From NCBI RefSeq assembly GCF_009931435.1, contig NZ_CP043414.1: a stretch of 64,000 bases of DNA. One strand, 5' to 3'. Each line of letters opens with the position of its first letter. Position 1 is the stretch's first letter. The notes beneath the pieces are model-generated. The model saw only the letters and a program-made list of their open reading frames with translations. It searched no databases and was not told where the DNA came from. The stretch comes from Escherichia coli (GTDB lineage Bacteria; Pseudomonadota; Gammaproteobacteria; Enterobacterales; Enterobacteriaceae). Below are positions 2,846-64,000 of the stretch, in pieces. The position numbers were made by a program, and so were the translations under genes.

Positions 2846-4135
2846 ATGACAACGGACGATCTTGCCTTTGACCAACGCCATATCTGGCACCCATACACAT
2901 CCATGACCTCCCCGCTACCGGTTTATCCGGTGGCGAGCGCCGAAGGTTGCGAGCTGATTTTGTCTGACGGCAGACGCCTGATTGACGGTATGTCGTCCTG
3001 GTGGGCGGCAATCCACGGCTACAATCACCCGCAGCTCAATGCGGCAATGAAGTCGCAAATTGATGCCATGTCGCATGTGATGTTTGGCGGTATCACCCAT
3101 GCGCCCGCTGTCGAGCTGTGCCGCAAACTGGTGGCAATGACGCCGCAACCGCTGGAATGCGTTTTTCTCGCGGACTCCGGCTCCGTAGCGGTGGAAGTGG
3201 CGATGAAAATGGCGTTGCAGTACTGGCAAGCCAAAGGCGAAGCGCGCCAGCGTTTTCTGACCTTCCGCAATGGTTATCATGGCGATACCTTTGGCGCGAT
3301 GTCGGTGTGCGATCCAGACAACTCAATGCACAGCCTGTGGAAAGGCTATCTGCCAGAAAACCTGTTTGCTCCCGCGCCGCAAAGCCGCATGGATGGCGAA
3401 TGGGATGAACGCGATATGGTGGGCTTCGCACGTCTGATGGCGGCGCATCGTCATGAAATCGCGGCGGTGATCATTGAACCGATTGTTCAGGGCGCTGGCG
3501 GAATGCGCATGTACCATCCGGAATGGTTAAAACGAATCCGCAAAATGTGCGATCGTGAAGGTATCTTGCTGATTGCTGACGAGATAGCCACCGGTTTTGG
3601 TCGTACCGGCAAACTGTTTGCCTGCGAACATGCGGGGATCGCGCCGGACATTTTGTGCCTCGGTAAAGCCTTAACCGGCGGCACGATGACCCTTTCCGCC
3701 ACGCTCACCACGCGCGAGGTTGCGGAAACCATCAGTAACGGTGAAGCTGGCTGCTTTATGCATGGGCCTACTTTTATGGGCAATCCACTGGCCTGCGCGG
3801 CAGCAAACGCCAGCCTGGCCATTATCGAATCTGGCGACTGGCAGCAGCAGGTAGCGACTATTGAAGTACAACTGCGCGAGCAACTGGCTCCTGCCCGTGA
3901 CGCCGAAATGGTTGCCGATGTGCGCGTGCTGGGAGCGATTGGCGTGGTCGAAACCACTCGTCCGGTGAATATGGCAGCGCTGCAAAAATTCTTTGTCGAA
4001 CAGGATGTCTGGATACGACCATTTGGCAAACTGATTTACCTGATGCCGCCCTATATTATTAGCCCGCAACAGTTGCTGCGCCTGACCACAGCGGTTAACC
4101 GCGCGGTACAGGATGAAACATTTTTTTGCCAATAG
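2846..4135 (+). CDS. bioA: adenosylmethionine-8-amino-7-oxononanoate aminotransferase
   Basis: ORF 2735-4135; start placed at internal ATG 2846 ([19 protein letters not shown]) giving 429 aa as in K-12. Confidence 0.93.
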
Positions 4136-4193
4136 CGGGAAGTCAGCGTGAGGGTTTCTGGCTACACTTTCTGCAAACTAGAAAGGAGGGTTC

Positions 4194-4670
4194 ATGAAAC
4201 TCATCAGTAATGATTTACGCGATGGCGATAAGCTGCCGCATCGTCATGTCTTTAACGGCATGGGTTACGATGGCGATAATATTTCACCGCATCTGGCATG
4301 GGATGATGTTCCTGCGGGAACCAAAAGTTTTGTCGTCACCTGCTACGACCCGGATGCGCCAACCGGCTCCGGCTGGTGGCACTGGGTAGTTGTTAATTTA
4401 CCCGCTGATACCCGCGTATTACCGCAAGGGTTTGGATCTGGTCTGGTAGCAATGCCAGACGGCGTTTTGCAGACGCGTACCGACTTTGGTAAAACCGGGT
4501 ACGATGGTGCAGCGCCGCCGAAAGGCGAAACCCATCGCTACATTTTTACCGTTCACGCGCTGGATGTAGAACGTATTGATGTCGATGAAGGTGCCAGCGG
4601 CGCGATGGTCGGGTTTAACGTTCATTTCCACTCTCTGGCAAGCGCCTCGATTACTGCGATGTTTAGTTAA
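4194..4670 (+). CDS. ybhB: PEBP-family protein YbhB
   Basis: 158 aa ORF, AGGAGG Shine-Dalgarno 7 nt upstream, PEBP-like sequence. Confidence 0.9.
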   Translation: MKLISNDLRDGDKLPHRHVFNGMGYDGDNISPHLAWDDVPAGTKSFVVTCYDPDAPTGSGWWHWVVVNLPADTRVLPQGFGSGLVAMPDGVLQTRTDFGKTGYDGAAPPKGETHRYIFTVHALDVERIDVDEGASGAMVGFNVHFHSLASASITAMFS

Positions 4671-4821
4671 TCACTCTGCCAGATGGCGCAATGCCATCTG
4701 GTATCACTTAAAGGTATTAAAAACAACTTTTTGTCTTTTTACCTTCCCGTTTCGCTCAAGTTAGTATAAAAAAGCAGGCTTCAACGGATTCATTTTTCTA
4801 TTTCATAGCCCGGAGCAACCT

Positions 4822-6105
4822 GTGAACACATTTTCAGTTTCCCGTCTGGCGCTGGCATTGGCTTTTGGCGTGACGCTGACCGCCTGTAGCTCAACACCGC
4901 CCGATCAACGTCCTTCTGATCAAACCGCGCCTGGTACCTCTTCTCGCCCGATTCTGTCGGCAAAAGAAGCGCAGAATTTCGATGCTCAACACTATTTTGC
5001 GTCCCTGACGCCAGGTGCTGCAGCGTGGAATCCTTCCCCGATTACTCTGCCTGCACAACCTGACTTTGTTGTCGGTCCGGCGGGTACTCCGGGTGTAACG
5101 CATACCACGATTCAGGCGGCGGTAGATGCGGCAATTATCAAGCGTACCAATAAGCGCCAGTATATTGCCGTGATGCCTGGTGAATATCAGGGAACGGTGT
5201 ATGTCCCTGCCGCTCCGGGTGGAATTACCGTTTATGGTACAGGTGAAAAACCGATTGATGTGAAGATTGGGCTTTCCCTTGATGGGGGCATGAGCCCTGC
5301 CGACTGGCGTCACGATGTCAATCCGCGCGGCAAATACATGCCCGGTAAACCGGCATGGTATATGTACGATAGCTGCCAGAGCAAACGCAGCGACAGTATC
5401 GGCGTTCTCTGCTCTGCGGTCTTCTGGTCACAAAACAATGGCCTGCAACTGCAAAACCTGACCATCGAAAACACGCTGGGTGATAGCGTAGATGCGGGTA
5501 ACCATCCGGCGGTGGCACTGCGTACTGATGGCGATAAAGTGCAGATCAACAACGTCAACATTCTCGGTCGTCAGAATACCTTCTTTGTGACCAACAGCGG
5601 TGTACAGAACCGTCTGGAAACCAATCGTCAACCACGTACGCTGGTGACGAATAGCTATATTGAAGGGGATGTGGATATCGTTTCTGGTCGCGGCGCAGTG
5701 GTGTTCGATAATACCGAATTCCGCGTGGTGAACTCCCGTACCCAGCAAGAAGCGTATGTGTTTGCACCGGCTACGCTGTCTAACATCTATTACGGTTTCC
5801 TCGCCGTAAACAGCCGCTTCAATGCTTCCGGTGATGGCGTGGCGCAACTGGGCCGCTCGCTGGATGTTGATGCCAATACCAACGGTCAGGTGGTGATCCG
5901 TGATAGCGCCATCAACGAAGGTTTTAACACGGCTAAACCGTGGGCCGATGCGGTGATTTCCAATCGTCCGTTTGCGGGTAATACTGGCAACGTTGATGAT
6001 AACGACGAAGTACAGCGTAATCTGAATGACACTAACTACAACCGCATGTGGGAATACAATAACCGCGGCGTGGGTAGCAAAGTGGTTGCAGAGGCGAAGA
6101 AGTAA
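4822..6105 (+). CDS. ybhC: outer-membrane lipoprotein YbhC (pectinesterase-fold acyl-CoA thioesterase)
   Basis: 427 aa ORF with GTG start and lipoprotein signal peptide ending in lipobox LTAC. Confidence 0.9.
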   Translation: MNTFSVSRLALALAFGVTLTACSSTPPDQRPSDQTAPGTSSRPILSAKEAQNFDAQHYFASLTPGAAAWNPSPITLPAQPDFVVGPAGTPGVTHTTIQAAVDAAIIKRTNKRQYIAVMPGEYQGTVYVPAAPGGITVYGTGEKPIDVKIGLSLDGGMSPADWRHDVNPRGKYMPGKPAWYMYDSCQSKRSDSIGVLCSAVFWSQNNGLQLQNLTIENTLGDSVDAGNHPAVALRTDGDKVQINNVNILGRQNTFFVTNSGVQNRLETNRQPRTLVTNSYIEGDVDIVSGRGAVVFDNTEFRVVNSRTQQEAYVFAPATLSNIYYGFLAVNSRFNASGDGVAQLGRSLDVDANTNGQVVIRDSAINEGFNTAKPWADAVISNRPFAGNTGNVDDNDEVQRNLNDTNYNRMWEYNNRGVGSKVVAEAKK

Positions 6106-30108: not shown

Positions 30109-30264
30109 AGATAGTCGAATGGTGGGGAAAAGTCACTCGAAATACGTATGAGATGACGAATGCCACACTTTGCGTCTTATTCCTCCGACGTAGAGTCGTT
30201 TACGCAGCAAGCGCGGAGTATGTCATCAGGGTCAAGAATTGAAATTGAGAGATGCCTGAATAGC

Positions 30265-30291
30265 AAAAAAGCGCCTTTAGGGCGCTTTTTT
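30265..30291 (-). terminator. duplicated copy of lysQ-distal terminator hairpin
   Basis: aaaaaagcgcc-tttag-ggcgctttttt; identical to the copy at 30421-30447. Confidence 0.55.
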
Positions 30292-30295
30292 ACAT

Positions 30296-30401
30296 TGGTG
30301 GGTCGTGCAGGATGACTCACTTCGCTCGCCCTTCGGGCCGTCGCCGCAAGCGGCTCCGTTGTTTCGCTGCGCTCTACTCGAACCTGCAGCAGGTTCGAAT
30401 C
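30296..30401. repeat. tRNA-Lys-derived remnant
   Basis: Starts with the 3-prime-terminal 17 nt of tRNA-Lys then diverges; ends with an inverted T-arm-like segment gcaggttcgaatc. Confidence 0.6.
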
Positions 30402-30420
30402 TTTGAATATCGCAGATAGC

Positions 30421-30447
30421 AAAAAAGCGCCTTTAGGGCGCTTTTTT
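30421..30447 (-). terminator. Rho-independent terminator after lysQ
   Basis: Hairpin agcgcc-tttag-ggcgct flanked by A and T runs, immediately 3-prime of the last tRNA. Confidence 0.65.
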
Positions 30448-30451
30448 ACAT

Positions 30452-30527
30452 TGGTGGGTCGTGCAGGATTCGAACCTGCGACCAATTGATTAAAAGTCAA
30501 CTGCTCTACCAACTGAGCTAACGACCC
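30452..30527 (-). tRNA. lysQ: tRNA-Lys (UUU)
   Basis: 76-nt exact reverse complement of tRNA-Lys, anticodon loop CTTTTAA, CCA encoded. Confidence 0.95.
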
Positions 30528-30559
30528 CTTGCGGGATTATGCTGCTTTAATCATTCAGG

Positions 30560-30632
30560 ATGGTGGGTCGTGCAGGATGACTCGACTTCGTCTCGCCCTT
30601 CGGGCCGTTGCTGACGCAACGTTATCCTTCAC
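30560..30632. repeat. intergenic spacer repeat of the tRNA operon (tRNA-Lys 3-prime-end-like)
   Basis: tggtgggtcgtgcaggatgactcgacttcgtctcgcccttcgggccgttgctgacgcaacgttatccttcac; near-identical at 31276-31347. Confidence 0.7.
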
Positions 30633-30659
30633 ATTCTCTACCAGTAACCACCTTTAAAT

Positions 30660-30735
30660 TGGTGGGTCGTGCAGGATTCGAACCTGCGACCAATTGATTA
30701 AAAGTCAACTGCTCTACCAACTGAGCTAACGACCC
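30660..30735 (-). tRNA. lysZ: tRNA-Lys (UUU)
   Basis: 76-nt copy identical to lysQ. Confidence 0.95.
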
Positions 30736-30783
30736 ATACGGGTGTTACCTGAATGATTTCTACTCGGGACCAATCTTTAATAT

Positions 30784-30853
30784 TGGTGGATCGTGCAGGA
30801 TGACTCGCTTCGCTCGCCCTACGGGCCGTTGCTGGCGCAACGTTATCCTTCAC
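30784..30853. repeat. intergenic spacer repeat (diverged copy)
   Basis: tggtggatcgtgcaggatgactcgcttcgctcgccctacgggccgttgctggcgcaacgttatccttcac. Confidence 0.65.
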
Positions 30854-30881
30854 GCTTAACATCTGAGTTTGATGTTAAAAC

Positions 30882-30957
30882 TGGTGGGTCGTGCAGGATT
30901 CGAACCTGCGACCAATTGATTAAAAGTCAACTGCTCTACCAACTGAGCTAACGACCC
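30882..30957 (-). tRNA. lysY: tRNA-Lys (UUU)
   Basis: 76-nt copy identical to lysQ. Confidence 0.95.
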
Positions 30958-30960
30958 GAG

Positions 30961-31036
30961 TGGTGGGTGATGACGGGATCGAACCGCCGACCCCCTCCTT
31001 GTAAGGGAGGTGCTCTCCCAGCTGAGCTAATCACCC
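30961..31036 (-). tRNA. valZ: tRNA-Val (UAC)
   Basis: Reverse complement of tRNA-Val, anticodon loop CTTACAA, T-loop GGTTCGATCC. Confidence 0.93.
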
Positions 31037-31086
31037 GATACTGCGCTGGATACTACAAACTACTTCCACCGAACCCACCGCATTAG

Positions 31087-31162
31087 TGGTGGGTCGTGCA
31101 GGATTCGAACCTGCGACCAATTGATTAAAAGTCAACTGCTCTACCAACTGAGCTAACGACCC
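31087..31162 (-). tRNA. lysW: tRNA-Lys (UUU)
   Basis: 76-nt copy identical to lysQ. Confidence 0.95.
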
Positions 31163-31164
31163 GG

Positions 31165-31240
31165 TGGTGGGTGATGACGGGTTCGAACCGCCGACCCCCT
31201 CCTTGTAAGGGAGGTGCTCTCCCAGCTGAGCTAATCACCC
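31165..31240 (-). tRNA. valT: tRNA-Val (UAC), T-loop variant
   Basis: Same as valZ except one base (GGTTCGAACC instead of GGTTCGATCC). Confidence 0.9.
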
Positions 31241-31275
31241 GATACTACGCTGGATACTACAACTAACTAGGTTAG

Positions 31276-31347
31276 TGGTGGGTCGTGCAGGATGACTCGA
31301 CTTCGTCTCGCCCTTCGGGCCGTTGCTGACGCAACGTTATCCTTCAC
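31276..31347. repeat. intergenic spacer repeat of the tRNA operon
   Basis: Near-identical to 30560-30632. Confidence 0.7.
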
Positions 31348-31375
31348 GTTTTACTACCGCTTCCACCTTAGCGAT

Positions 31376-31451
31376 TGGTGGGTCGTGCAGGATTCGAACC
31401 TGCGACCAATTGATTAAAAGTCAACTGCTCTACCAACTGAGCTAACGACCC
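31376..31451 (-). tRNA. lysT: tRNA-Lys (UUU), first gene of operon
   Basis: 76-nt copy identical to lysQ. Confidence 0.95.
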
Positions 31452-52782: not shown

Positions 52783-53385
52783 ATGGAAGCGCGAATTTCA
52801 ACTGAACGGCATGTGCAGCGCCAACAGAAATTGAAGGAACAGGTCGATACGCGCGTCGCGGCGGCGATAGAGAAAAAAGGGATCTTGATTGTTTTCACCG
52901 GCAACGGCAAAGGGAAATCCACTGCCGCGTTTGGTACTGTGACGCGCGCGGTGGGTCATGGCAAAACGGTGGGGGTTGCGCAGTACATCAAGGGGCAATG
53001 GGACAACGGCGAATACAACCTTCTCCAGCCGCTGGGGGTTGAGTTTCATATTATGGGAACCGGTTTTACCTGGGAGACTCAGAACCGGCAAGCGGATATC
53101 GACGCGGCGAAAGAGGTCTGGTCGGAAAGCAAACGGATGCTGGCTGACAAGCGTTACGACTTAGTGGTGCTTGATGAGCTGACCTATATGCTGGCTTACC
53201 ATTATCTGGACACCGAAGAAGTGATCACTTCTCTGCAAAACCGCCCGGCACAACAAAGTGTCATTGTCACCGGACGCAGTTGCCACAGTCAGATATTAAA
53301 AATGGCGGATACGGTCAGCGAAATCCGCCCCGTCAAACATGCTTTTGATAACGGCATTCAGGCGCAGCCGGGTATCGACTGGTAA
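52783..53385 (+). CDS. cob(I)alamin adenosyltransferase, CobA/BtuR family paralog
   Basis: 200 aa ORF with P-loop IVFTGNGKGKSTAAFG; close to remembered K-12 BtuR. Confidence 0.85.
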   Translation: MEARISTERHVQRQQKLKEQVDTRVAAAIEKKGILIVFTGNGKGKSTAAFGTVTRAVGHGKTVGVAQYIKGQWDNGEYNLLQPLGVEFHIMGTGFTWETQNRQADIDAAKEVWSESKRMLADKRYDLVVLDELTYMLAYHYLDTEEVITSLQNRPAQQSVIVTGRSCHSQILKMADTVSEIRPVKHAFDNGIQAQPGIDW

Positions 53386-53418
53386 TAACTGCGCCTGGCA
53401 TCCAGCCAGGCGCAGGTT

Positions 53419-54324
53419 TTACATCTCCTGCGGTACGACCGATTTCGCCAGCAACCATTCACGAAATTGCTGCAAGTGCGGCGAGTCAGACTTCTCTTCC
53501 TGCCACGTCATAATAAAACGATTACCGGTACGAATAGGCACATCACAGGGAATCACCATATCGCCACTATCCAAATCATGTTGAATAGCGAACCGTGGTA
53601 ACAGCGCCACGCCGAGATTAGAGCGCACGGCGGCAATCAGCATTGAAAGCAAATCGAAACGTGGTCCGTTATTGACCAGCGGACTGCTAACGCCAGATAA
53701 AGCAAACCACTCTTCCCAGCCAGTAATACGGGTGCTTTGATGCAGAAGTGGTAACTCAGTAAGCAGTTCTGCCACTGACAGTTTTTGATCGGACATTGCA
53801 AGCAAACTGCCGCTGCATACCGGCAAAATCTCCTCTTCAAAGAGATATTCTACTTCCGCCCAGGGCGCGCAAAAATTTTCGCGCATAATGACAGCATCGT
53901 ACTCCCGATTAAGAAAATCGCCGTTATTAGCTAAAGAATGAATATTAACAATAATATCGGGATGTAACTTTGTGAATTCATGTAAATTTGGGATTAACCA
54001 GTGGGTACTAAACGTAGGATTAACGGCAAGTTCAATAACCTGAACCGTAGGCTGCCAGGTCATAATCGTATTGGTATCGCGCTCCAATTTATTTAATGTT
54101 TCTTTTACTATCCCCAGGTAATACTTCCCTGCATCATTAAGAAAAATGCGTTTTTTAGAGTGTGAAAATAACGGAGTATGTAAAAATTCCTCCAACGCAC
54201 TTACTTGTCTGAATACTGCACTTTGGGTTAACGCTAACTCCTCTGCCGCTCTGGTATAACTTTCATGACGTGCGACGACCTCAAAAGTCACCAGCAGCTC
54301 CGTTTTAGGTATTTTTCCTCGCAT
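53419..54324 (-). CDS. LysR-family transcriptional regulator
   Basis: 301 aa ORF, N-terminal HTH (ESYTRAAEELALTQSAVFRQVSALEEFL). Confidence 0.85.
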   Translation of the reverse strand: MRGKIPKTELLVTFEVVARHESYTRAAEELALTQSAVFRQVSALEEFLHTPLFSHSKKRIFLNDAGKYYLGIVKETLNKLERDTNTIMTWQPTVQVIELAVNPTFSTHWLIPNLHEFTKLHPDIIVNIHSLANNGDFLNREYDAVIMRENFCAPWAEVEYLFEEEILPVCSGSLLAMSDQKLSVAELLTELPLLHQSTRITGWEEWFALSGVSSPLVNNGPRFDLLSMLIAAVRSNLGVALLPRFAIQHDLDSGDMVIPCDVPIRTGNRFIMTWQEEKSDSPHLQQFREWLLAKSVVPQEM

Positions 54325-54480
54325 AATGCCGTCCCTTAAAAATAGTTTAAACCATCAAAAATACATTACTTATTACGAAGTAATGGTAACCAAAGCAGCA
54401 ATAAATAATTTATAAGAATCATGATTAACATTTATAACCCAGTAAGCCTGGCGTGACAATTATCTTAATCAGATAATAAT

Positions 54481-54509
54481 AATCCGAAAAGCACAGCACC
54501 TTTCGGATT
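54481..54509 (-). terminator. hairpin downstream of the HAL-like gene (weak terminator candidate)
   Basis: Stem atccgaaa / tttcggat with 11-nt loop, followed on the minus strand by ATTATTATTAT. Confidence 0.35.
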
Positions 54510-54594
54510 ATCAGGAATTACATTAAGTGAAAATTATTAAATTGATATCATTTATCATATCTGTGGATATAATGATAAACAATCAACATAGATT

Positions 54595-56265
54595 TTATTT
54601 TTGATTTATAGCATATCCCTCTAAGAATTTTTGCGATGCTTCAATATCCGGGGTAAAGACCCGATCCTGACTGACAAATGGCACGACTTGACGATAAGCG
54701 GTGAACATCGCTTTTGTTGATTTGCCTAACGCCAGCTGTGGATCGGCTTGCAAGCGCAAATCAATCGCCTGGGCAGAATGCATCAGTTCAATGCCATAAA
54801 TGACATTCAAATTATCAACAACCTGTTTCAATCTTCTCGCCGCGTGGTCGTTATTGGCACCCGTATCTTCAATGCCTCCGGCTACCGGTTGAATATCGAA
54901 AGAAACCGGGTTAGCGAGATCGACATTTTCCGCATGCAGCGCAACAAACGGGATATGTAATGAACCGAAGCCATGACCTTTATTACCTGCTGCCGACAGG
55001 AAGCGTGACAAACCGGTAAAGTGATCATCTTCAAGATGCAGCGAGCGGCGCATACTGTTATGTGAAACATGCACTAACGCCACGGTCAGACGCTGGGTGG
55101 CAAGCGCAACCGGTAACGATTCGAAATTCGCCGTCGGGAAGATCCCACCGCTGATTGCCCCATCTTTAACAAAATATTGCGCGACCTGACTGGAGTCCTG
55201 ATACGCTTTGTCTGCATTCAGCACGGTTGCCGGGTTGTCATCGGAACTGTTGATCTGCACGGTAATGGTATCTTCAGCATCGCGCAACGCGCGCATTGCC
55301 TCAGAAATGGTATACACCGTCGTTCTGAACGATAACGGATCCTGCAATGCACGTTTGTCATCCTTATGCCATAAATAAGAACCACTTAACGCATCGCGAA
55401 TCTCTTTAGCGGAATCAGCCAACTGCGGGAAAGGACGCACGGCGATCGACTGCGGCAGTACCGGCGCGACATTGCCATTCAACGCTTCGAGGCTCATGGC
55501 GAAAACCACCGGACTGACATTCAGCACCTGGCGTGCCGACCGTACCGCTTCAATTGCATATGCTGTTCCGACACTGTTGTTCGACAAAATCGCCAGCATA
55601 TCTTTACCCTGCGGGACCAGTGGTTTAAGCCCCACTTTCACCAGCGCATCGCCACCACTCATTTCCACGCCATTAACCCGCGCTTTCCACTCGCCCATCA
55701 TCACCAGACCAACGTGTGAAGCGAGCATAATATCCGCTGCGCCGATACTTCCCCGCGCCGGAATTAACGGCGTAACGCCTCGATTAATAAACTCGGCATA
55801 CAACTCGGCAATATAAGGCTGCGCGCCGGTTTGCCCATGCAACATAGTATTTAAACGTAACACCATTGAGAGACGGGCAAGATAATCCGGCAACATCGGA
55901 CCGACGCCCGCAGAATGGGCGCGCAGCGCGGCAGCATTAAATTTTTTCGATGCGTCAATCACCTCAGGCGTTAAATTTCCTTTGGCATCAAATATGGGCT
56001 GATCTTTATTTAGCCCCACGCCCACGGTTAAGCCATAAACAGGCGTACCTGAATGCGCGGCAGTCATCACCAGATCATAACTTTTTTCCATGCGCTCCAT
56101 GGCGTTCGACGCGATTTTGACGCCGTTATCACCTAATGCAATTGACCAGGCCTGGTCAATAGAGAGATGTTCGCCATCCAGCGTAATGGTTGATTTTGCC
56201 ATCGCGATGGAGCAAACGCTCCAGAGCACAACGGTGACAGTGACTCTGCGTATCAATCCTTTCAT
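54595..56265 (-). CDS. aromatic amino acid lyase (HAL/PAL) fold protein lacking the MIO triad, signal-peptide-like N-terminus
   Basis: 556 aa ORF; conserved GSVGASGDLAPLAH block reads GSIGAADIMLASH (codons checked at 55729-55752); N-terminus MKGLIRRVTVTVVLWSVCSIAMA; AAGGA 6 nt upstream of ATG 56265. Confidence 0.8.
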   Translation of the reverse strand: MKGLIRRVTVTVVLWSVCSIAMAKSTITLDGEHLSIDQAWSIALGDNGVKIASNAMERMEKSYDLVMTAAHSGTPVYGLTVGVGLNKDQPIFDAKGNLTPEVIDASKKFNAAALRAHSAGVGPMLPDYLARLSMVLRLNTMLHGQTGAQPYIAELYAEFINRGVTPLIPARGSIGAADIMLASHVGLVMMGEWKARVNGVEMSGGDALVKVGLKPLVPQGKDMLAILSNNSVGTAYAIEAVRSARQVLNVSPVVFAMSLEALNGNVAPVLPQSIAVRPFPQLADSAKEIRDALSGSYLWHKDDKRALQDPLSFRTTVYTISEAMRALRDAEDTITVQINSSDDNPATVLNADKAYQDSSQVAQYFVKDGAISGGIFPTANFESLPVALATQRLTVALVHVSHNSMRRSLHLEDDHFTGLSRFLSAAGNKGHGFGSLHIPFVALHAENVDLANPVSFDIQPVAGGIEDTGANNDHAARRLKQVVDNLNVIYGIELMHSAQAIDLRLQADPQLALGKSTKAMFTAYRQVVPFVSQDRVFTPDIEASQKFLEGYAINQK

Positions 56266-56315
56266 TGTGTTTCCTTATTTTGATGAGTTTAACAACGGAT
56301 TACTGCAACAACCTC

Positions 56316-57266
56316 TTAATTTGTTTTATCTGTTTTTCCTCGACGGACAATAGTGGCAGCCAGGCGAGCGGCAACCTTCGCGGTCAAATTATCGCGGTCC
56401 AAATCTGGGTTCAGTTCGGCAATATCCGCAGCAATCAACTTCTCGCTACCGGCAATTAAATTCACAATAGCCTCAGCAATATTTAATGGCACGCCTAACG
56501 GCGAAGGCGCAGAAACGCCAGGAGCCTGATAACCCGGTAAGACATCAAGACAAATCGTTAAATAAATGGCGTCACACGCCTGAATATCTGCCGAGAGCGC
56601 ATTAACAATCTCATGCAAACCACGTTCAAATTGCAGAGATTCATCCAGCCAATAACGCACACCAGGACAATCAGCACGATCAAATAACGCCTGAGTGTTG
56701 GCATAACGGCTTATTCCCAGCACGCGATAATGAAACGGTTTGCCATGCTGCGCATTCCACTCCTGCATCTGCCGAAACGGCGTACCCGAATTGGCCTTTT
56801 CCGCCATCCGCAAATCAAAATGCGCGTCAAGGTTGACTATCAGCAGTCGCCGAATATCCGGACGCGACTGCATAATCCCCTGAAATGTTCCCCATGCCAC
56901 TTCATGACCGCCGCCCAGAACGACCGGCAAACTGCCGCGCGCAATTGCCATAGCCACGTTTTCCGCCAGACGGTTTTGTGCGGGTTCCAGCGCGTGGTCT
57001 TCGCTTTGCACGTCACCCATGTCAAAAATAGCGCCTTCATGGAGCACTGGCATATTGCCCAACATGCTGCGTAATGCGCCCGGTCCGCCTGCTGCGCCCG
57101 CTCGCCCACCGTTACGTTGCACCCCGTCATCGACGGCAAAACCAATCAGCGTACTGCCTCCATGACTTTGTTCGGTAAACGGTTTTACATGCTGATGCCA
57201 GCGGGTGCTGACGCCAGTTTCCTGCGAGTCAACACGTCCACTCCATGCCATAAATGTTTGCTTCAT
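56316..57266 (-). CDS. hutG: formimidoylglutamase
   Basis: ORF 56316-57305; start placed at ATG 57264-57266 overlapping hutI stop (TAATG); arginase-fold motifs GGGHE and DAHFD. Confidence 0.85.
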   Translation of the reverse strand: MKQTFMAWSGRVDSQETGVSTRWHQHVKPFTEQSHGGSTLIGFAVDDGVQRNGGRAGAAGGPGALRSMLGNMPVLHEGAIFDMGDVQSEDHALEPAQNRLAENVAMAIARGSLPVVLGGGHEVAWGTFQGIMQSRPDIRRLLIVNLDAHFDLRMAEKANSGTPFRQMQEWNAQHGKPFHYRVLGISRYANTQALFDRADCPGVRYWLDESLQFERGLHEIVNALSADIQACDAIYLTICLDVLPGYQAPGVSAPSPLGVPLNIAEAIVNLIAGSEKLIAADIAELNPDLDRDNLTAKVAARLAATIVRRGKTDKTN

Positions 57267-58477
57267 TACCAACTCCTTTTTCCGCCGACAATCAGCCCCA
57301 GACAAGGCTGATGTCCAAACCAGTAAGCCAGCTCACGCGGATGATTAAGATCCCAAACAGCCATATCCGCCCGTAGTCCCGGCGCAAGTTCACCCCGATC
57401 AACAAGTCCAAGCGCTTTTGCCGCATGACGTGTAACGCCCTGAACGGCTTCCAGCGGGGTCATGTGAAACAGCGTACAGGCCATATTGATCATCAACTGC
57501 AATGACATGTTGGGAGACGTTCCGGGGTTATGATCCGTGGAGATGGCAATCGGCACACCTGCGGCCCGCAGAGCGACAATCGGCGGCAGATGGGTTTCGC
57601 GCAGGAAGTAATAAGCACCGGGAAGCAAAACCGCCACTGTTCCAGCCGCTTTCATGGCGGCGATCCCCGACTCGCTCAGGTACTCCAGATGATCGCAGGA
57701 GAGTGCAGAAAACGCCGCTGCCAGCGCCGCGCCTTGCTGGTCAGAAAGCTGTTCGGCATGCAGTTTTACAGGTAATCCATAGCTTTGCGCTTTACTGAAA
57801 ACGCGCCGTACCTGCTCTGGAGTAAAGGCGATGTTTTCACAAAAAGCATCAACTGCATCAATCAGCCCCTGTTCATGCAACACGCACATCCAGTCGCAAA
57901 GCGCCGTAATGTAATCATCACTGCGCCCGGCAAACTCTGGCGGCAGGCTGTGCGCCCCGAGAAACGTAGACTGAATATGTAACCCGGTAGATTGCTGCAA
58001 GCGGCGGATCACGCGTAAACAACGCGCTTCATCTTCCAGCGTTAAGCCATAACCCGATTTGATTTCAAGCGTACTGACGCCTTCACGTTGCCAGTTTCGC
58101 AGTCGCTGCGCCGCCAGTTCAAACAGCTGTGTTTCGCTGGCTGCCCGCGTGGCATTAACCGTAGATAAGATCCCGCCGCCCGCTCTGGCGATATCTTCAT
58201 AAGCCACGCCTTGCAACCGCATCTCAAACTCGTTCGCCCTCTGGCCGCCATACACCAGATGTGTATGACAATCTACCAGACCGGGTGTCAGCAACTTACC
58301 CTGTAGATCGTGTTCTTCTGTAATATCAGCCGTCAGTTCACGGGGGATCTGCGTGGCCTTCCCAAGCCAGACAATCGAGTCACCGCGGCTGATTAATGCA
58401 CCGTTTTCAATCACCCCCCAATCATTAGCCGAAAGCGTCGTCAGGGTGGTATTTCGCCAGAGCGTAAATGCACTCAT
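57266..58477 (-). CDS. hutI: imidazolonepropionase
   Basis: ORF 57266-58513; start placed at ATG 58477 (MSAFTLWRNTTL) overlapping hutD stop (ATGA); amidohydrolase DCHTHL motif. Confidence 0.85.
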   Translation of the reverse strand: MSAFTLWRNTTLTTLSANDWGVIENGALISRGDSIVWLGKATQIPRELTADITEEHDLQGKLLTPGLVDCHTHLVYGGQRANEFEMRLQGVAYEDIARAGGGILSTVNATRAASETQLFELAAQRLRNWQREGVSTLEIKSGYGLTLEDEARCLRVIRRLQQSTGLHIQSTFLGAHSLPPEFAGRSDDYITALCDWMCVLHEQGLIDAVDAFCENIAFTPEQVRRVFSKAQSYGLPVKLHAEQLSDQQGAALAAAFSALSCDHLEYLSESGIAAMKAAGTVAVLLPGAYYFLRETHLPPIVALRAAGVPIAISTDHNPGTSPNMSLQLMINMACTLFHMTPLEAVQGVTRHAAKALGLVDRGELAPGLRADMAVWDLNHPRELAYWFGHQPCLGLIVGGKRSW

Positions 58478-59064
58478 AAGGATTTTTCCCCTCGTAGATA
58501 ATAAATCCACCAACCCGCCAGCTCGCCGACGGAGACTTTTTGCTGTGGTACGAAACGCCAGGAGTTGCCATCAGGCGCAAACCGCCATAACAACGTATTC
58601 GCCGTTACAAACACCCTGTTCTCGCCGCTTATCCACTCCCCTTCACACAGCGTGAACAGCCCCGCTTGCGCATGCGCCGGAGGGAGCCAGTCAATGACGC
58701 TTTGCACACGACGCATCCCCGCATCGCCTTCCCGCGCCATAATATTCAGATCGCGAACCCCGCCGCCCAGCAGCTGACAATCAGGCATTGCTTCTCCAGG
58801 GAAAATTAAGGCGGGATCGTGACGTTGCAGGTTGATGATCGAATCGGCAAACGTTAGCTTCACCCCTTCCCCGTCGAGGATCGCGAGGCCACGAACCACG
58901 CCAGGCCACGCTGAAAAAGGGCCATCCTGACTGACATTCGCCATACTGATGCGCAACAACCAGTTTTCATCATCGGGCCAGGCAAGCAGCTGTCGGGTAA
59001 ACCCCCCGCCGTTGCGCCACGGTTGCAGCGGCTTATCCATTGCAGAAATCAGCATCGGTTCCAT
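58474..59064 (-). CDS. hutD: HutD-family protein
   Basis: 196 aa ORF with WRNGGGFTRQL, matching the HutD N-terminal signature. Confidence 0.8.
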   Translation of the reverse strand: MEPMLISAMDKPLQPWRNGGGFTRQLLAWPDDENWLLRISMANVSQDGPFSAWPGVVRGLAILDGEGVKLTFADSIINLQRHDPALIFPGEAMPDCQLLGGGVRDLNIMAREGDAGMRRVQSVIDWLPPAHAQAGLFTLCEGEWISGENRVFVTANTLLWRFAPDGNSWRFVPQQKVSVGELAGWWIYYLRGEKSL

Positions 59065-59065
59065 A

Positions 59066-60475
59066 TTAAGACTCGGGATAAATCGTATAAGCAGGAACGC
59101 AGGTGGTGCGTTTGGCCCACGGGTAATAGATAACGGCGGTAATTAACAAGCCGACAATCCAGGAGATATCCGCCCCATCCATCAGGACAGAAATGGGTCC
59201 CTGATACAGTTTTTGATTCAGGAAGGGGATCTGCACCAACACGCCTACGCCATAGCACGTCAAAGCGGTTTTGTTATACGCGCCATAACGCCCTTCCGGG
59301 GTATAAAGCGCTGGAATATCGGTTTTACCTTGTGAGATGAAGTAATAATCGATGAGATTAATGGCACTCCACGGAACAAATACCGTCAACAGTAGCAGAA
59401 CGAAGTTTTTGAAATTATTCAAAAAATCTGCGCTTGCCGCCAGCGCGACGACCATCGACAACAGCACGAACCCTACAACGTAGGCAGCACGAACACGCTG
59501 TGAAACCTGACTGCGATCATTAAAGGCGCTGACGGTCGCCAGAATCGACATAAAGCCACCGTAGGCATTCAAACAGTTCACCGTCAGTTTGCCGCAAACA
59601 ATCACCATATAAATCAGAATGGCGAAGGTGGGTCCGGCTAACTCGCCCATAAAACCAACCTGATCCTTCAGGAAGTTAGCACCACAGGCCGCAACAAGTA
59701 CGCCAAACGTCATGGCACATTGCGCACCAAGCGTGGTTCCCAGAAAGGTGGCAAAGAAGATTGATTTTGCTGGCGTATCAGAGGGTAAATAGCGGGAATA
59801 ATCAGAGGCGTAAGGGGCAAACGTTAATTGCCATCCGGCAGAGAGAGCAATCGTTAATAAAAAGACCGACAGACTAAATGGCTTTTGACCAAATGCCGCA
59901 GCCACATCGTAGTGACCGCTAAGTTGAGTGGCCAGGTAAATAAACCCCAGAATACTTAATATCCCTGCAACACGGCCAACGACGTGAATTAGTTTATAAC
60001 CGACCAATGCGATCATCGCGGTCAGCATGCCGAAAATAATAATTCCGGTCGATGCCGATTCGAAACCAAATATCCGGTTAATCGCCTGACCGGATAATAC
60101 TGTACCCGTCGCGGCAAATCCAAGGTACATAATAATCACCATCAGTAACGGTAGCGCCGCTCCTTTAACGCCAAAGCGGATACGACTGGAGATCATCTGG
60201 GGTAATCCCAGCTTTGCCCCCTGCGACGAGTGCAATGCCATTACTGCACCACCAATAATATTACCGATTAATAAACCAATTATTGCTGACATAGCTTCGG
60301 AGCCAAAAATAATCGCTAACGCGCCGTCCACCACTGCGGTAATTTGTAAGTTAGCACTTAGCCATAAAGTAAACTGACTAGATGGCGCGCCGTGGCGAGC
60401 AGACTCAGGAACGGCGTTAATCGTATTTGATTCTAATACTGGCTTTTTACTGCGGATAGGGCTGCTTGATTCCAT
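59066..60475 (-). CDS. NCS1-family permease (CodB-like)
   Basis: ORF 59066-60520 starts on TTG; start placed at ATG 60475 with AGGAG 8 nt upstream; CodB-like RFGVKGAALP segment. Confidence 0.8.
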   Translation of the reverse strand: MESSSPIRSKKPVLESNTINAVPESARHGAPSSQFTLWLSANLQITAVVDGALAIIFGSEAMSAIIGLLIGNIIGGAVMALHSSQGAKLGLPQMISSRIRFGVKGAALPLLMVIIMYLGFAATGTVLSGQAINRIFGFESASTGIIIFGMLTAMIALVGYKLIHVVGRVAGILSILGFIYLATQLSGHYDVAAAFGQKPFSLSVFLLTIALSAGWQLTFAPYASDYSRYLPSDTPAKSIFFATFLGTTLGAQCAMTFGVLVAACGANFLKDQVGFMGELAGPTFAILIYMVIVCGKLTVNCLNAYGGFMSILATVSAFNDRSQVSQRVRAAYVVGFVLLSMVVALAASADFLNNFKNFVLLLLTVFVPWSAINLIDYYFISQGKTDIPALYTPEGRYGAYNKTALTCYGVGVLVQIPFLNQKLYQGPISVLMDGADISWIVGLLITAVIYYPWAKRTTCVPAYTIYPES

Positions 60476-60638
60476 GAAAAAGTCTCCTGCAAAATGAGAG
60501 GTCATTTTTTGAAACAGCAATAGAGGGTCGGGAGATATTTTTCTCGACGATGTAAAAATATTTTTTGATAATTATTGTTATACAGGCGAATTATTCTCCG
60601 CCTGTATTAGCGCAAATATTAAATGACGGCGTTAATAT

Positions 60639-62336
60639 TTAGCGAATCATCGGTAATTTCAGACCATAGTTTTTGGCACATTCAATTGCCGCTTCATAAC
60701 CCGCATCCGCATGACGCATAACCCCGGACGCACAGTCATTCACCAGCACACGCGCCAGACGTTTTTCGGCTTCTTCGCTACCATCGGCAACAATAACCAT
60801 CCCGGCGTGTTGTGAATACCCCATCCCGACGCCGCCGCCATGATGCAGGGATACCCACGTTGCTCCCCCTGCAGTGTTGAGCAAACCGTTGAGCAACGGC
60901 CAGTCAGAAACCGCATCACTGCCATCAAGCATGCTTTCGGTTTCGCGGTTCGGGCTGGCGACAGAACCGGTATCAAGATGATCGCGCCCAATCACAATCG
61001 GTGCTTTTAGTTCACCGTTGCGCACCATTTCGTTGAATGCCAGCCCCGCCAGGTGACGCTCACCAAGCCCCAGCCAGCAAATACGTGAAGGAAGTCCCTG
61101 GAAGGCAATGCGCTCGCGCGCCATATCCAGCCAGCGATGCGTCAGTACGTTATTGGGGAACAACTCTTTAATTTTGGCATCGGTTTTATAGATATCTTCC
61201 GGGTCGCCAGACAGCGCCACCCAACGGAATGGACCTTTGCCTTCACAAAACATTGGACGAATATAAGCCGGAACAAAGCCCGGGAAATCAAAGGCATTTT
61301 GCAGACCTTCGTTGAAGGCCACCTGGCGGATGTTGTTGCCATAATCGACAACCGGGATCCCCATCGCCTGGAAGTCCAGCATCCCCTGAACATGTGCGAC
61401 GCAGCTCTGTGCCGCTTCTTTTTGCAATCTGGCGTGTTGCTGTGGATCCTGCTGTGCAGCGCGCCATTGTTCTACGCTCCAGCCCATCGGTAGGTAGCCA
61501 TAAACCAGATCGTGAGCGGAAGTCTGGTCGGTTACCAGATCCGGCTTAATCGCCCCCTGATGCGCACGTTTCACCAGCTCAGGAACAATTTCCGCCGCAT
61601 TGCCCAACAGCGCGATTGAAACAGCGTCTTTGCGCTCGGTATGGTATTTAATCAGCGCCAGTGCATCATCAAGATCTTTCGCTTGTTTATCGACATAACG
61701 GGTACGCAGTCGGAAGTCGATGCTACTTTGCTGGCACTCGATATTTAATGAGCACGCCCCCGCCAGAGTCGCCGCCAGCGGTTGTGCGCCACCCATACCA
61801 CCGAGCCCCGCGGTCAGGATCCATTTTCCACTCAGCGAATTGTTGTAGTGCTGACGACCCGCTTCAACAAAGGTTTCGAACGTTCCCTGCACAATGCCCT
61901 GACTACCGATGTAGATCCACGAGCCAGCGGTCATCTGGCCGTACATGAACAGACCTTTACGATCCAGTTCATTGAAATGATCCCAGTTGGCCCATTGCGG
62001 TACCAGGTTAGAGTTGGCAATCAATACGCGCGGCGCATCGGTATGCGTTTTAAACACGCCTACGGGTTTACCGGACTGAACCAGCAGTGACTCATCAGCT
62101 TCCAGATTTTTCAGTGATTCAAGGATCTTGTCAAAACACTCCCAGTTACGTGCCGCACGACCAATACCACCATACACCACCAGATGCTGTGGATTTTCGG
62201 CAACGTCGGGATCAAGGTTGTTCTGCAACATCCGGTAGGCTGCTTCAATTTGCCAGTTTTTGCAGTGCAGCTGCGTACCGTGTGGCGCATGGATTACACG
62301 GCTGGTATCAATACGCGGGTCTGAAGGCTTACTCAT
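60639..62336 (-). CDS. hutU: urocanate hydratase
   Basis: ORF 60639-62435; start placed at ATG 62336 ([12 protein letters not shown]) with AGGAG upstream, 565 aa; long identity runs with remembered HutU ([33 protein letters not shown]). Confidence 0.88.
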
Positions 62337-62402
62337 GAATCTTCTCCTGTTACTTGATAAAATTAAACGCTGTAATCGGTCAGAAAAAACGAACGAATGA
62401 AT

Positions 62403-62419
62403 ATAGAAACGGTTTCTAT
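62403..62419. promoter_or_regulatory. candidate operator palindrome upstream of hutU
   Basis: atagaaac-g-gtttctat, 8-1-8 perfect dyad about 70 bp upstream of hutU start. Confidence 0.3.
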
Positions 62420-62454
62420 AATTCCCGTTTATCATTTTGTATTATTAATTCATT

Positions 62455-62487
62455 TAGTGAATATTGTTTGTCTTGGTATATTCACTA
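62455..62487. promoter_or_regulatory. candidate operator inverted repeat upstream of hutU
   Basis: tagtgaatat-N13-atattcacta, perfect 10-bp arms. Confidence 0.3.
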
Positions 62488-63093
62488 TGAATATAAATTC
62501 AAAACCACCAACGCGTTGTATGCGAATTCAATATGCTTAATTTAACTTGTCGAAAAAGTGATATTGTTGGCAAAATATTTTCTAATTTGAACATATGAAT
62601 ATGATGAGATTGCAAGATGTCAGTAATTTAATTATCTAAGAAATGCGTTAATAACGACCAGATATTAGCGTAACAACAGGTGTTCCGACACCACACAGTG
62701 CGCATAACACAATGATATTTAAAATAAGATCTTCATTATTCGTCATAAAGACATGTTTTATTATCATTAATAATCCATTTGTTTTCATCCCACTTTTGAT
62801 AATTAAAAAACGGCAACAATGGCTAGTTACCCGACGTAAAAATAGGCGTAAAAATAAATCTTAAAATATATCCACTGGAAATTATCATTTTTCATATTTT
62901 ACAATCTGGCGTCGATAACTTACCCCTTTTATAACACCCCCGTTTGTTAATAGTCTTTTTTATCTTGTATTGATCGTCATTGCTGCATACACTACGCGCG
63001 TTTTCTTTCCCTTTTGCTGGCTGCTGACCGGAAAGACAAAATTACCCTCGCAATACAGGGGGTTGATTAACGTCTATATTTCAGGACAGCGTT

Positions 63094-64000
63094 ATGCATC
63101 ATCTTTCAAGGCTTGATAAAGCCTTTCTGCGCAAAGGGATCCAACTTTCCCGCGCCAACAATATTGTTTCATTATGTCGTCCATCAGGAGCCAGTGCCCG
63201 CGTACTGCTGCCGGACGAACTGCCGCTGGAAGAAAAAGCAGTGACACAACTGCTTGATTTTGCAGAAGTGAAGATACCAGGCCATCCAGGTTACGTACGC
63301 CAGACGTGCGCGACGCCAGATTTTCATCCCGGCAATGGCGTCCCCGTTGGCGCGGTGGTGGCCTCAACGCCGGATTTAGTCATTCCCGCCGCCATCGGCA
63401 CCGATATTTCTTGTGGCATGCGGCTGCTGACGACCGGATTAACCCTTGAGCAAGCCGAAGCGAATAAAGAAATAATCACTCAGCGGTTAACACAAGTGTT
63501 ACTGCAGAATGAGCGCGATGTTCCGTTATCCGCACGAGCGTTCACCGCGCTTTTTGATGGCGGACCGGCAGATTGCATGTCGGCCTTGCCATCAGCAGGT
63601 CTCTGGACACGTACAAATATCCCCCGGATGACGCAAGAGATTGACCGCTGCATTGGGCTTAACGAGCATAACAGTCATTCGCGTTATGCCCCCACCTGCC
63701 CTGCTGGCAACGGACCGCGCATTACTCCGCGATCCTTGTCTTGGTACGCCGGGTTCAGGTAATCATTTTATTGAACTTCAGGTCGTTGATAGCGTGGTTG
63801 ATCGCCATGTAGCCTGGCAACAAGGGCTGAAAACAGGCGATATTGTGGTGATGATCCACAGTGGATCGCGAGATGTTGGCTTTTACGTCGGAAGACGCTG
63901 GATGGATCGCGCCCGTGCTGAATGGCCCACCGGACATAAACATCCACAAAGCGGGTTATATGGTCTGGCAGGCGGACTGGCGGAGGAATATCTACAAGCG
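63094..64000 (+). pseudogene. RtcB-family RNA ligase homolog, apparent frameshift, runs off window
   Basis: Frame 1 carries PDFHPGNGVPVGAV and stops at 63762; frame 2 opens at 63632 and carries LGTPGSGNHFIEL and HSGSRDVG; C5 run at 63688-63692 lies in the overlap. Confidence 0.65.

Follow-up and report, generated by a model that had tools for sequence, protein, structure and literature searches.

The last gene in the 64,000-nucleotide stretch of Escherichia coli DNA analysed here (hereafter the window; contig NZ_CP043414.1 of assembly GCF_009931435.1) is best read as a very recent pseudogene, a single-base frameshift in an accessory, stand-alone gene of the RtcB family whose product would be unable to ligate. 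We put the probability of this reading at roughly 0.9. The proposed course of events is short. An intact gene of 465 amino acids stood at the edge of a hut (histidine utilisation) island, between hutU and sucD, as it does in a minority of E. coli lineages. In this strain's clone one C was then added to a run of four, most plausibly by replication slippage, giving the C5 run at 63689-63693. As a result, translation from the ATG at 63094 follows the native frame only through residue 200 and stops at the TAA at 63760.

Translation of the window in the three forward frames shows how the gene is divided. Frame 1 (63094-63762, plus strand) is open from the ATG at 63094 to the TAA at 63760-63762; it contains PDFHPGNGVPVGAV and encodes 222 amino acids, identical to RefSeq WP_241956677.1. 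Frame 2 (63632-64000, plus strand) is open from 63632, immediately after a TGA at 63629-63631, up to position 64000, where the window ends; it carries the remainder of the gene from about residue 200, and both LGTPGSGNHFIEL and HSGSRDVG lie in it. The Pfam RtcB profile (PF01139) matches the frame-1 piece with 66 bits (E-value 4.7e-18, profile positions 7-77) and the frame-2 piece with 81.9 bits (E-value 7.5e-23, profile positions 144-225). Both pieces are well over the gathering score of 27 bits, and the matches are far beyond chance. A preliminary description of this DNA had recognised an RtcB-like gene with its motifs in two frames; the Pfam matches on both pieces bear this out, and the structural matches given below agree.

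The same description had placed the frame switch at a C5 homopolymer, and intact homologues indeed have C4 there. CCCCC is, as it had said, the sole homopolymer of at least four bases within the overlap of the two frames at 63632-63759 (another C5, at 63621-63625, lies just beyond the overlap), but its position had been given one base too far to the left, as 63688-63692; position 63688 is the G of an ATG, and the run (plus strand) occupies 63689-63693. This coordinate is the one point on which the description needs amending. The alignment to intact RtcB homologues that had been proposed as a check locates a single 1-nt gap, which falls exactly in the C run: the window has C5, three intact E. 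coli genes have C4, and C4 is found in every intact allele examined. A look downstream had also been proposed. The window cuts frame 2, and in sister contigs this frame continues to the normal stop, which would be at about window coordinate 64492; the neighbouring gene is sucD, with no rtcA, rtcR, or prfH nearby. When one C is removed from the sister contigs, the 465 amino acid protein is restored and no other defects are seen. The frame-1 product thus consists of native residues 1-200 and 22 out-of-frame residues. The break lies at a conserved place, A199-P200 of an RYAP motif; among 30 subfamily members, A199 is nearly invariant and P200 invariant.

Is the extra base in the genome or only in the assembly? 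The preliminary description had left the choice between a pseudogene and a sequencing indel, and homopolymers are the classic place for indel errors. Such errors may be visible elsewhere at this locus: in a 4.56-Mb contig of GCA_027278565.1, the RtcB-like gene has three homopolymer indels (gene nt 139, 528, and 632), which may be long-read errors. If the window were a case of the same kind, the genome would truly be C4 and the gene intact, which we consider highly improbable. The exact 222 amino acid product occurs on nine contigs of independent projects (GCA_002965045.1, GCA_036246705.1, and assemblies made straight from read sets, among them ERR6140658 and SRR25824453). Four of these loci were read out (L004-L007), and all have C5, with the gene as in the window and 0-2 mismatches in the flanks; the window's lineage does not, then, show the C4 or C6 and single continuous frame that the description had named as the outcome pointing to an intact gene. 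A run of five bases is also short for systematic error. Over approximately 49 kb, the main alignment between the window and its nearest complete relative, 2020CK-00188, holds five indels, of which four are intergenic and the C insertion is the sole coding one, so that a systematic homopolymer error problem is not evident. The presence of C5 on nine contigs from independent assemblies and read sets argues for a real mutation, and the evidence, taken at the level of assemblies, favours a genuine single-C insertion over a sequencing error.

The insertion also appears to be very recent. The segment 62900-64000 has matches in 295 of 5426 complete E. coli genomes (90-98.4% identity), always annotated as "RtcB family protein," and in the three complete genomes examined there is an intact 465 amino acid coding sequence that starts at the base equivalent to 63094. 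A 71-nt probe centred on the run matched at best 70/71 in complete E. coli genomes: of the 289 that have the locus, not one has C5, and a search for a C3 allele in the same genomes also found none. The exact repaired 465 amino acid protein is present in 382 blocks of the assembly collection. In two of the loci compared (GCA_015328125.1 and a metagenome), the gene is identical to that of the window over all 1398 nt save for C4, and the flanks show one mismatch to the window lineage in 3 kb on each side. An otherwise identical gene with near-identical flanks indicates that the insertion arose very recently, within a clone, and is the sole lesion. The reading frame is interrupted relative to orthologues that are intact and selectively constrained. 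In this the window gene is indistinguishable from the single-lesion homopolymer frameshift pseudogenes known among accessory genes of Escherichia and Shigella, in which a one-base indel sits in an otherwise pristine gene with intact sister orthologues. As a young pseudogene, derived from an annotated orphan RtcB paralog, it is nothing out of the ordinary. RefSeq treats the halves as two proteins and not as a pseudogene; they are listed separately as WP_241956677.1 (222 amino acids) and WP_241956676.1 (268 amino acids), with "Escherichia sp. MOD1-EC6300" among the sources.

The differences from 2020CK-00188 are unevenly spread. Seventeen of 18 are packed into a 300-bp stretch at window positions 63243-63537, and the adjacent 10 kb is 99.6%-99.8% identical; the clustering suggests a recombination patch between RtcB alleles.

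Indels at this run are not confined to the window's clone. In a draft assembly of another E. coli lineage (GCA_024354095.1), the run is C3 (gene nt 596), so that one site has independently undergone an insertion and a deletion. One might therefore suppose that the C run is a phase-variable contingency switch that toggles the ligase, a supposition we find very hard to sustain. Known contingency tracts have about seven or more bases, and runs of four to five bases mutate too rarely for phase variation. The 289 complete genomes contain neither C5 nor C3, base-by-base alignment of three intact genes shows C4 in each, and within the clone the four contigs that were read out all carry C5. A phase-variable contingency locus would be marked by a tract of about seven or more bases, with lengths that differ between close isolates, which is not what we find. 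The C3 case is one unrelated draft assembly. Since the gene has 11 runs of at least four bases, a second hit on the same run has a chance of approximately 1 in 11 and is unremarkable. In both GCA_024354095.1 and GCA_027278565.1, the RtcB-like gene is followed by a gene for a GH38 alpha-mannosidase (mngB-like) in place of sucD.

What would the intact gene encode? The 465 amino acid protein matches Thermus thermophilus TTHA1785 and Pyrococcus horikoshii RtcB among the sequences of the PDB (E-value approximately 1e-41). Its residues D104, C107, N223, H224, H255, H342, and H394 align with D95, C98, N202, H203, H234, H329, and H404 of the P. horikoshii enzyme, and all seven catalytic residues are invariant in the alignment of 30 subfamily members (57%-87% identity). 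The AlphaFold2 (AF2) model of the intact allele has a pLDDT of 87.7 and a pTM of 0.90; in a structure search with this model, the best 16 PDB matches are all RtcB or RTCB, the first being 4dwq_A (TM 0.80, E-value 1e-31). Fold, profile score, and catalytic set all place the intact allele in the RtcB family. The solved RtcB ligases (P. horikoshii, 4DWQ/1UC2; T. thermophilus TTHA1785, 2EPG; human RTCB) share their Pfam family, fold, and catalytic residues with the intact allele, and the same chemistry is therefore expected of it, although sequence identity is only approximately 26% and the copy in the window is frameshifted. The intact protein is thus predicted to be a GTP/Mn2+-dependent ligase that joins an RNA 3'-phosphate or 2',3'-cyclic-phosphate to a 5'-OH via a His-GMP intermediate. 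Among intact alleles dN/dS is 0.07-0.22, and by this sequence measure the intact gene is under purifying selection.

The catalytic set of the family, metal ligands and GMP-accepting histidine, is complete in the intact allele and split over two frames in the window. The codons of the metal ligands Asp104 and Cys107 (motif GTDISCG; 63403-63414, plus strand), equivalent to Asp95 and Cys98 of P. horikoshii RtcB, are in frame 1. Those of Asn223-His224 (motif GSGNHF; 63761-63766, plus strand), equivalent to Asn202/His203, are in frame 2, and the frame-1 TAA overlaps this motif. The codon of His255 (motif HSGSR; 63857-63859, plus strand), equivalent to His234, is also in frame 2, and the codons of His342 and the GMP-accepting His394 lie past the end of the window. 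The truncated product consequently keeps Asp104 and Cys107 and has lost Asn223, His224, His255, and His342, together with the nucleophile His394. Most of the beta-sheet core is missing as well, including the strands at 225-256, 335-382, and 418-464 (numbering of the AF2 model). With Asp104 and Cys107 parted from the other five catalytic residues, the ligase activity of the C5 allele should be lost.

Could the two fragments nevertheless come together? The extra C puts an ATG at 63686-63688 (plus strand) in frame with the C-terminal part; gene callers use it as the start of the 268 amino acid ORF WP_241956676.1, and both halves are called as proteins by gene callers and by RefSeq. The 222 amino acid N-terminal fragment and a C-terminal fragment restarted at this ATG might then reassemble as an active ligase. 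We give this hardly any credence. No Shine-Dalgarno sequence was found ahead of the ATG at 63686, and with the frame-1 stop lying 74 nt downstream of this ATG, termination-reinitiation is unlikely. The break is in a conserved and confidently modelled segment (pLDDT approximately 90), the core sheet and the active site draw strands and ligands from both halves, and the C5 allele is too young for adaptation.

A full-length ligase might instead be recovered from the C5 allele by recoding, either through programmed +1 frameshifting at GCC-CCC-A, as in prfB, or through transcriptional slippage. A known property of CCC-N sites is their tendency to +1 shifts, and tRNA-Pro slipping from CCC onto CCA would give exactly the wild-type YAPPALL. 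However, genes with programmed +1 frameshifts of the prfB type have a conserved shift, a slippery site, and stimulators, and the window gene does not answer to this description. The shift is not conserved, the gene being unshifted in 289 complete genomes and, beyond these, in hundreds of assemblies; the C5 allele is the intact allele plus one C, and hence has no co-evolved stimulatory element; no Shine-Dalgarno-like stimulator precedes the site; and ACC, the frame-1 codon that follows, is neither a stop nor obviously slow or rare. A C5 run is far too short for slippage by RNA polymerase. Recoding is, in our judgement, almost certainly not at work here. Rare spontaneous +1 slippage by tRNA-Pro is possible in a CCC-A context, and trace amounts of full-length protein could be made from the C5 allele in this way.

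We now turn to the surroundings of the frameshifted gene. The window runs through a bio-ybh-mod-gal-aroG-nadA-tRNA-tol/pal-cyd region and then into an accessory island between cydA and sucD (window 41300-64000). The island contains methylaspartate pathway genes (glmS/glmL/glmE, methylaspartate ammonia-lyase) and genes for an AtuA-like protein, a DUF4387 protein, a dicarboxylate symporter, a class I fumarate hydratase, cobO, a LysR regulator, a HAL-family lyase, and hutG/hutI/HutD/permease/hutU. Coverage of 53000-63000 reaches 80% or more in just 143 of 5426 complete E. coli genomes. Last in the island comes the RtcB-like gene, which is monocistronic, with hutU divergent and sucD convergent. 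No rtcA, rtcR, or prfH was found anywhere in the homologous 64 kb. The description had called the gene an orphan paralog, and this holds: its neighbours are hutU and sucD, the three partner genes are absent from the 64 kb, and its scores against both equivalog models (given below) are under the cut-offs.

The spacer upstream of the RtcB-like gene is 0.66-0.76 kb long; measured from the annotated hutU start at about 62336, the non-coding interval between the two divergent genes is 62337-63093. An Rfam scan of 62300-64000 gave a single match at chance level (E-value 0.65; 19.5 bits against 80). For the sigma-54 motif TGGCAC-N5-TTGCW with up to three mismatches, there are 317 matches against 350 expected, and a GG-N10-GC scan of the spacer returned just two poor sites on the minus strand. 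These searches give no evidence of RtcR-type control. A sigma-70 promoter scan of the spacer gave 4 sites against 3.9 expected. The spacer is markedly AT-rich around 62700-62900. Some gene finders call a small, AT-rich ORF of 39-46 codons at 62648-62788 (minus strand), which has no family match.

Two further differences from the nearest complete genome lie elsewhere in the window. At 30260-30470, beside an array of seven tRNAs (30452-31451, minus strand; five Lys-UUU and two Val-UAC), the window is 156 nt shorter than 2020CK-00188 at repeats of the RtT-sRNA type, with one repeat unit fewer. The nearest complete genome also has a lambdoid prophage with integrase and excisionase beside ybhC (L020, 10105-15401); in the window, the ORFs at approximately 4100-6100 resemble bioF/bioB/bioA, a small ORF, and ybhC in size and order, and leave no space for a prophage.

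To which RtcB does the disrupted gene correspond? The intact protein scores 205.7 bits with NF007153, the model of RtcBA-type RtcB, for which the cut-off is 407, and 168.8 bits with TIGR03073 ("release_rtcB," PrfH-linked), for which it is 271.8. The gene belongs to a stand-alone RtcB subfamily that falls under the cut-offs of both named bacterial models. The RtcB of the RtcR-controlled, sigma-54-dependent rtcBA operon (NF007153) is likewise an RtcB-family ligase of E. coli. In contrast to it, the window gene, whose product has 465 amino acids when intact, has no adjacent rtcA or rtcR and no sigma-54 motif was found for it; its place is on the accessory hut island, which approximately 5% of complete E. 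coli genomes carry. Like the window gene, RtcB2 of the RtcB2-PrfH ribosome-repair module is an accessory paralog confined to a subset of E. coli strains (PMC9223846, PMC9304027), but no prfH adjoins the window gene. In the literature examined on RtcB paralogs (RtcBA, RtcB2-PrfH, and the Myxococcus xanthus paralogs), the hut-linked subfamily is not described.

This experimentally uncharacterised subfamily is catalytically complete and conserved, and purifying selection acts on it. It is linked to hut in Escherichia and spread widely in Pseudomonas and Burkholderiales; relatives of approximately 465 amino acids with 60%-67% identity are common in Pseudomonas, Variovorax, Burkholderia, Ralstonia, and Chitinimonas. 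Among the homologue loci examined, the divergent pairing with hutU is kept only by an 87%-identical relative. The stand-alone subfamily could have an RNA-repair substrate of its own, and a mutational hotspot or selection favouring inactivation, as opposed to neutral decay, could lie behind its loss by indels in the same run (C5 here, C3 in another lineage); we think this very unlikely.

The significance of the frameshift is slight outside annotation. WP_241956677.1 and WP_241956676.1 should be annotated as one frameshifted gene and not as two RtcB proteins, and the accessory ligase should be counted as absent from the C5 clone. Strains that naturally have C5 (null) or C4 (intact) and are otherwise near-identical at the locus provide a ready isogenic pair for functional questions.

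A conserved partner gene was sought at four homologue loci (Pseudomonas aeruginosa, Burkholderia, Chitinivorax, and an enterobacterial metagenome bin), where the neighbours are unrelated. At the locus of the betaproteobacterium Chitinivorax sp. B (L011), a gene for a KptA/Tpt1-type RNA 2'-phosphotransferase (PF01885; 6477-7049) directly follows a 66%-identical RtcB homologue on the same strand; this is the sole RNA-repair-themed neighbour observed for the subfamily.
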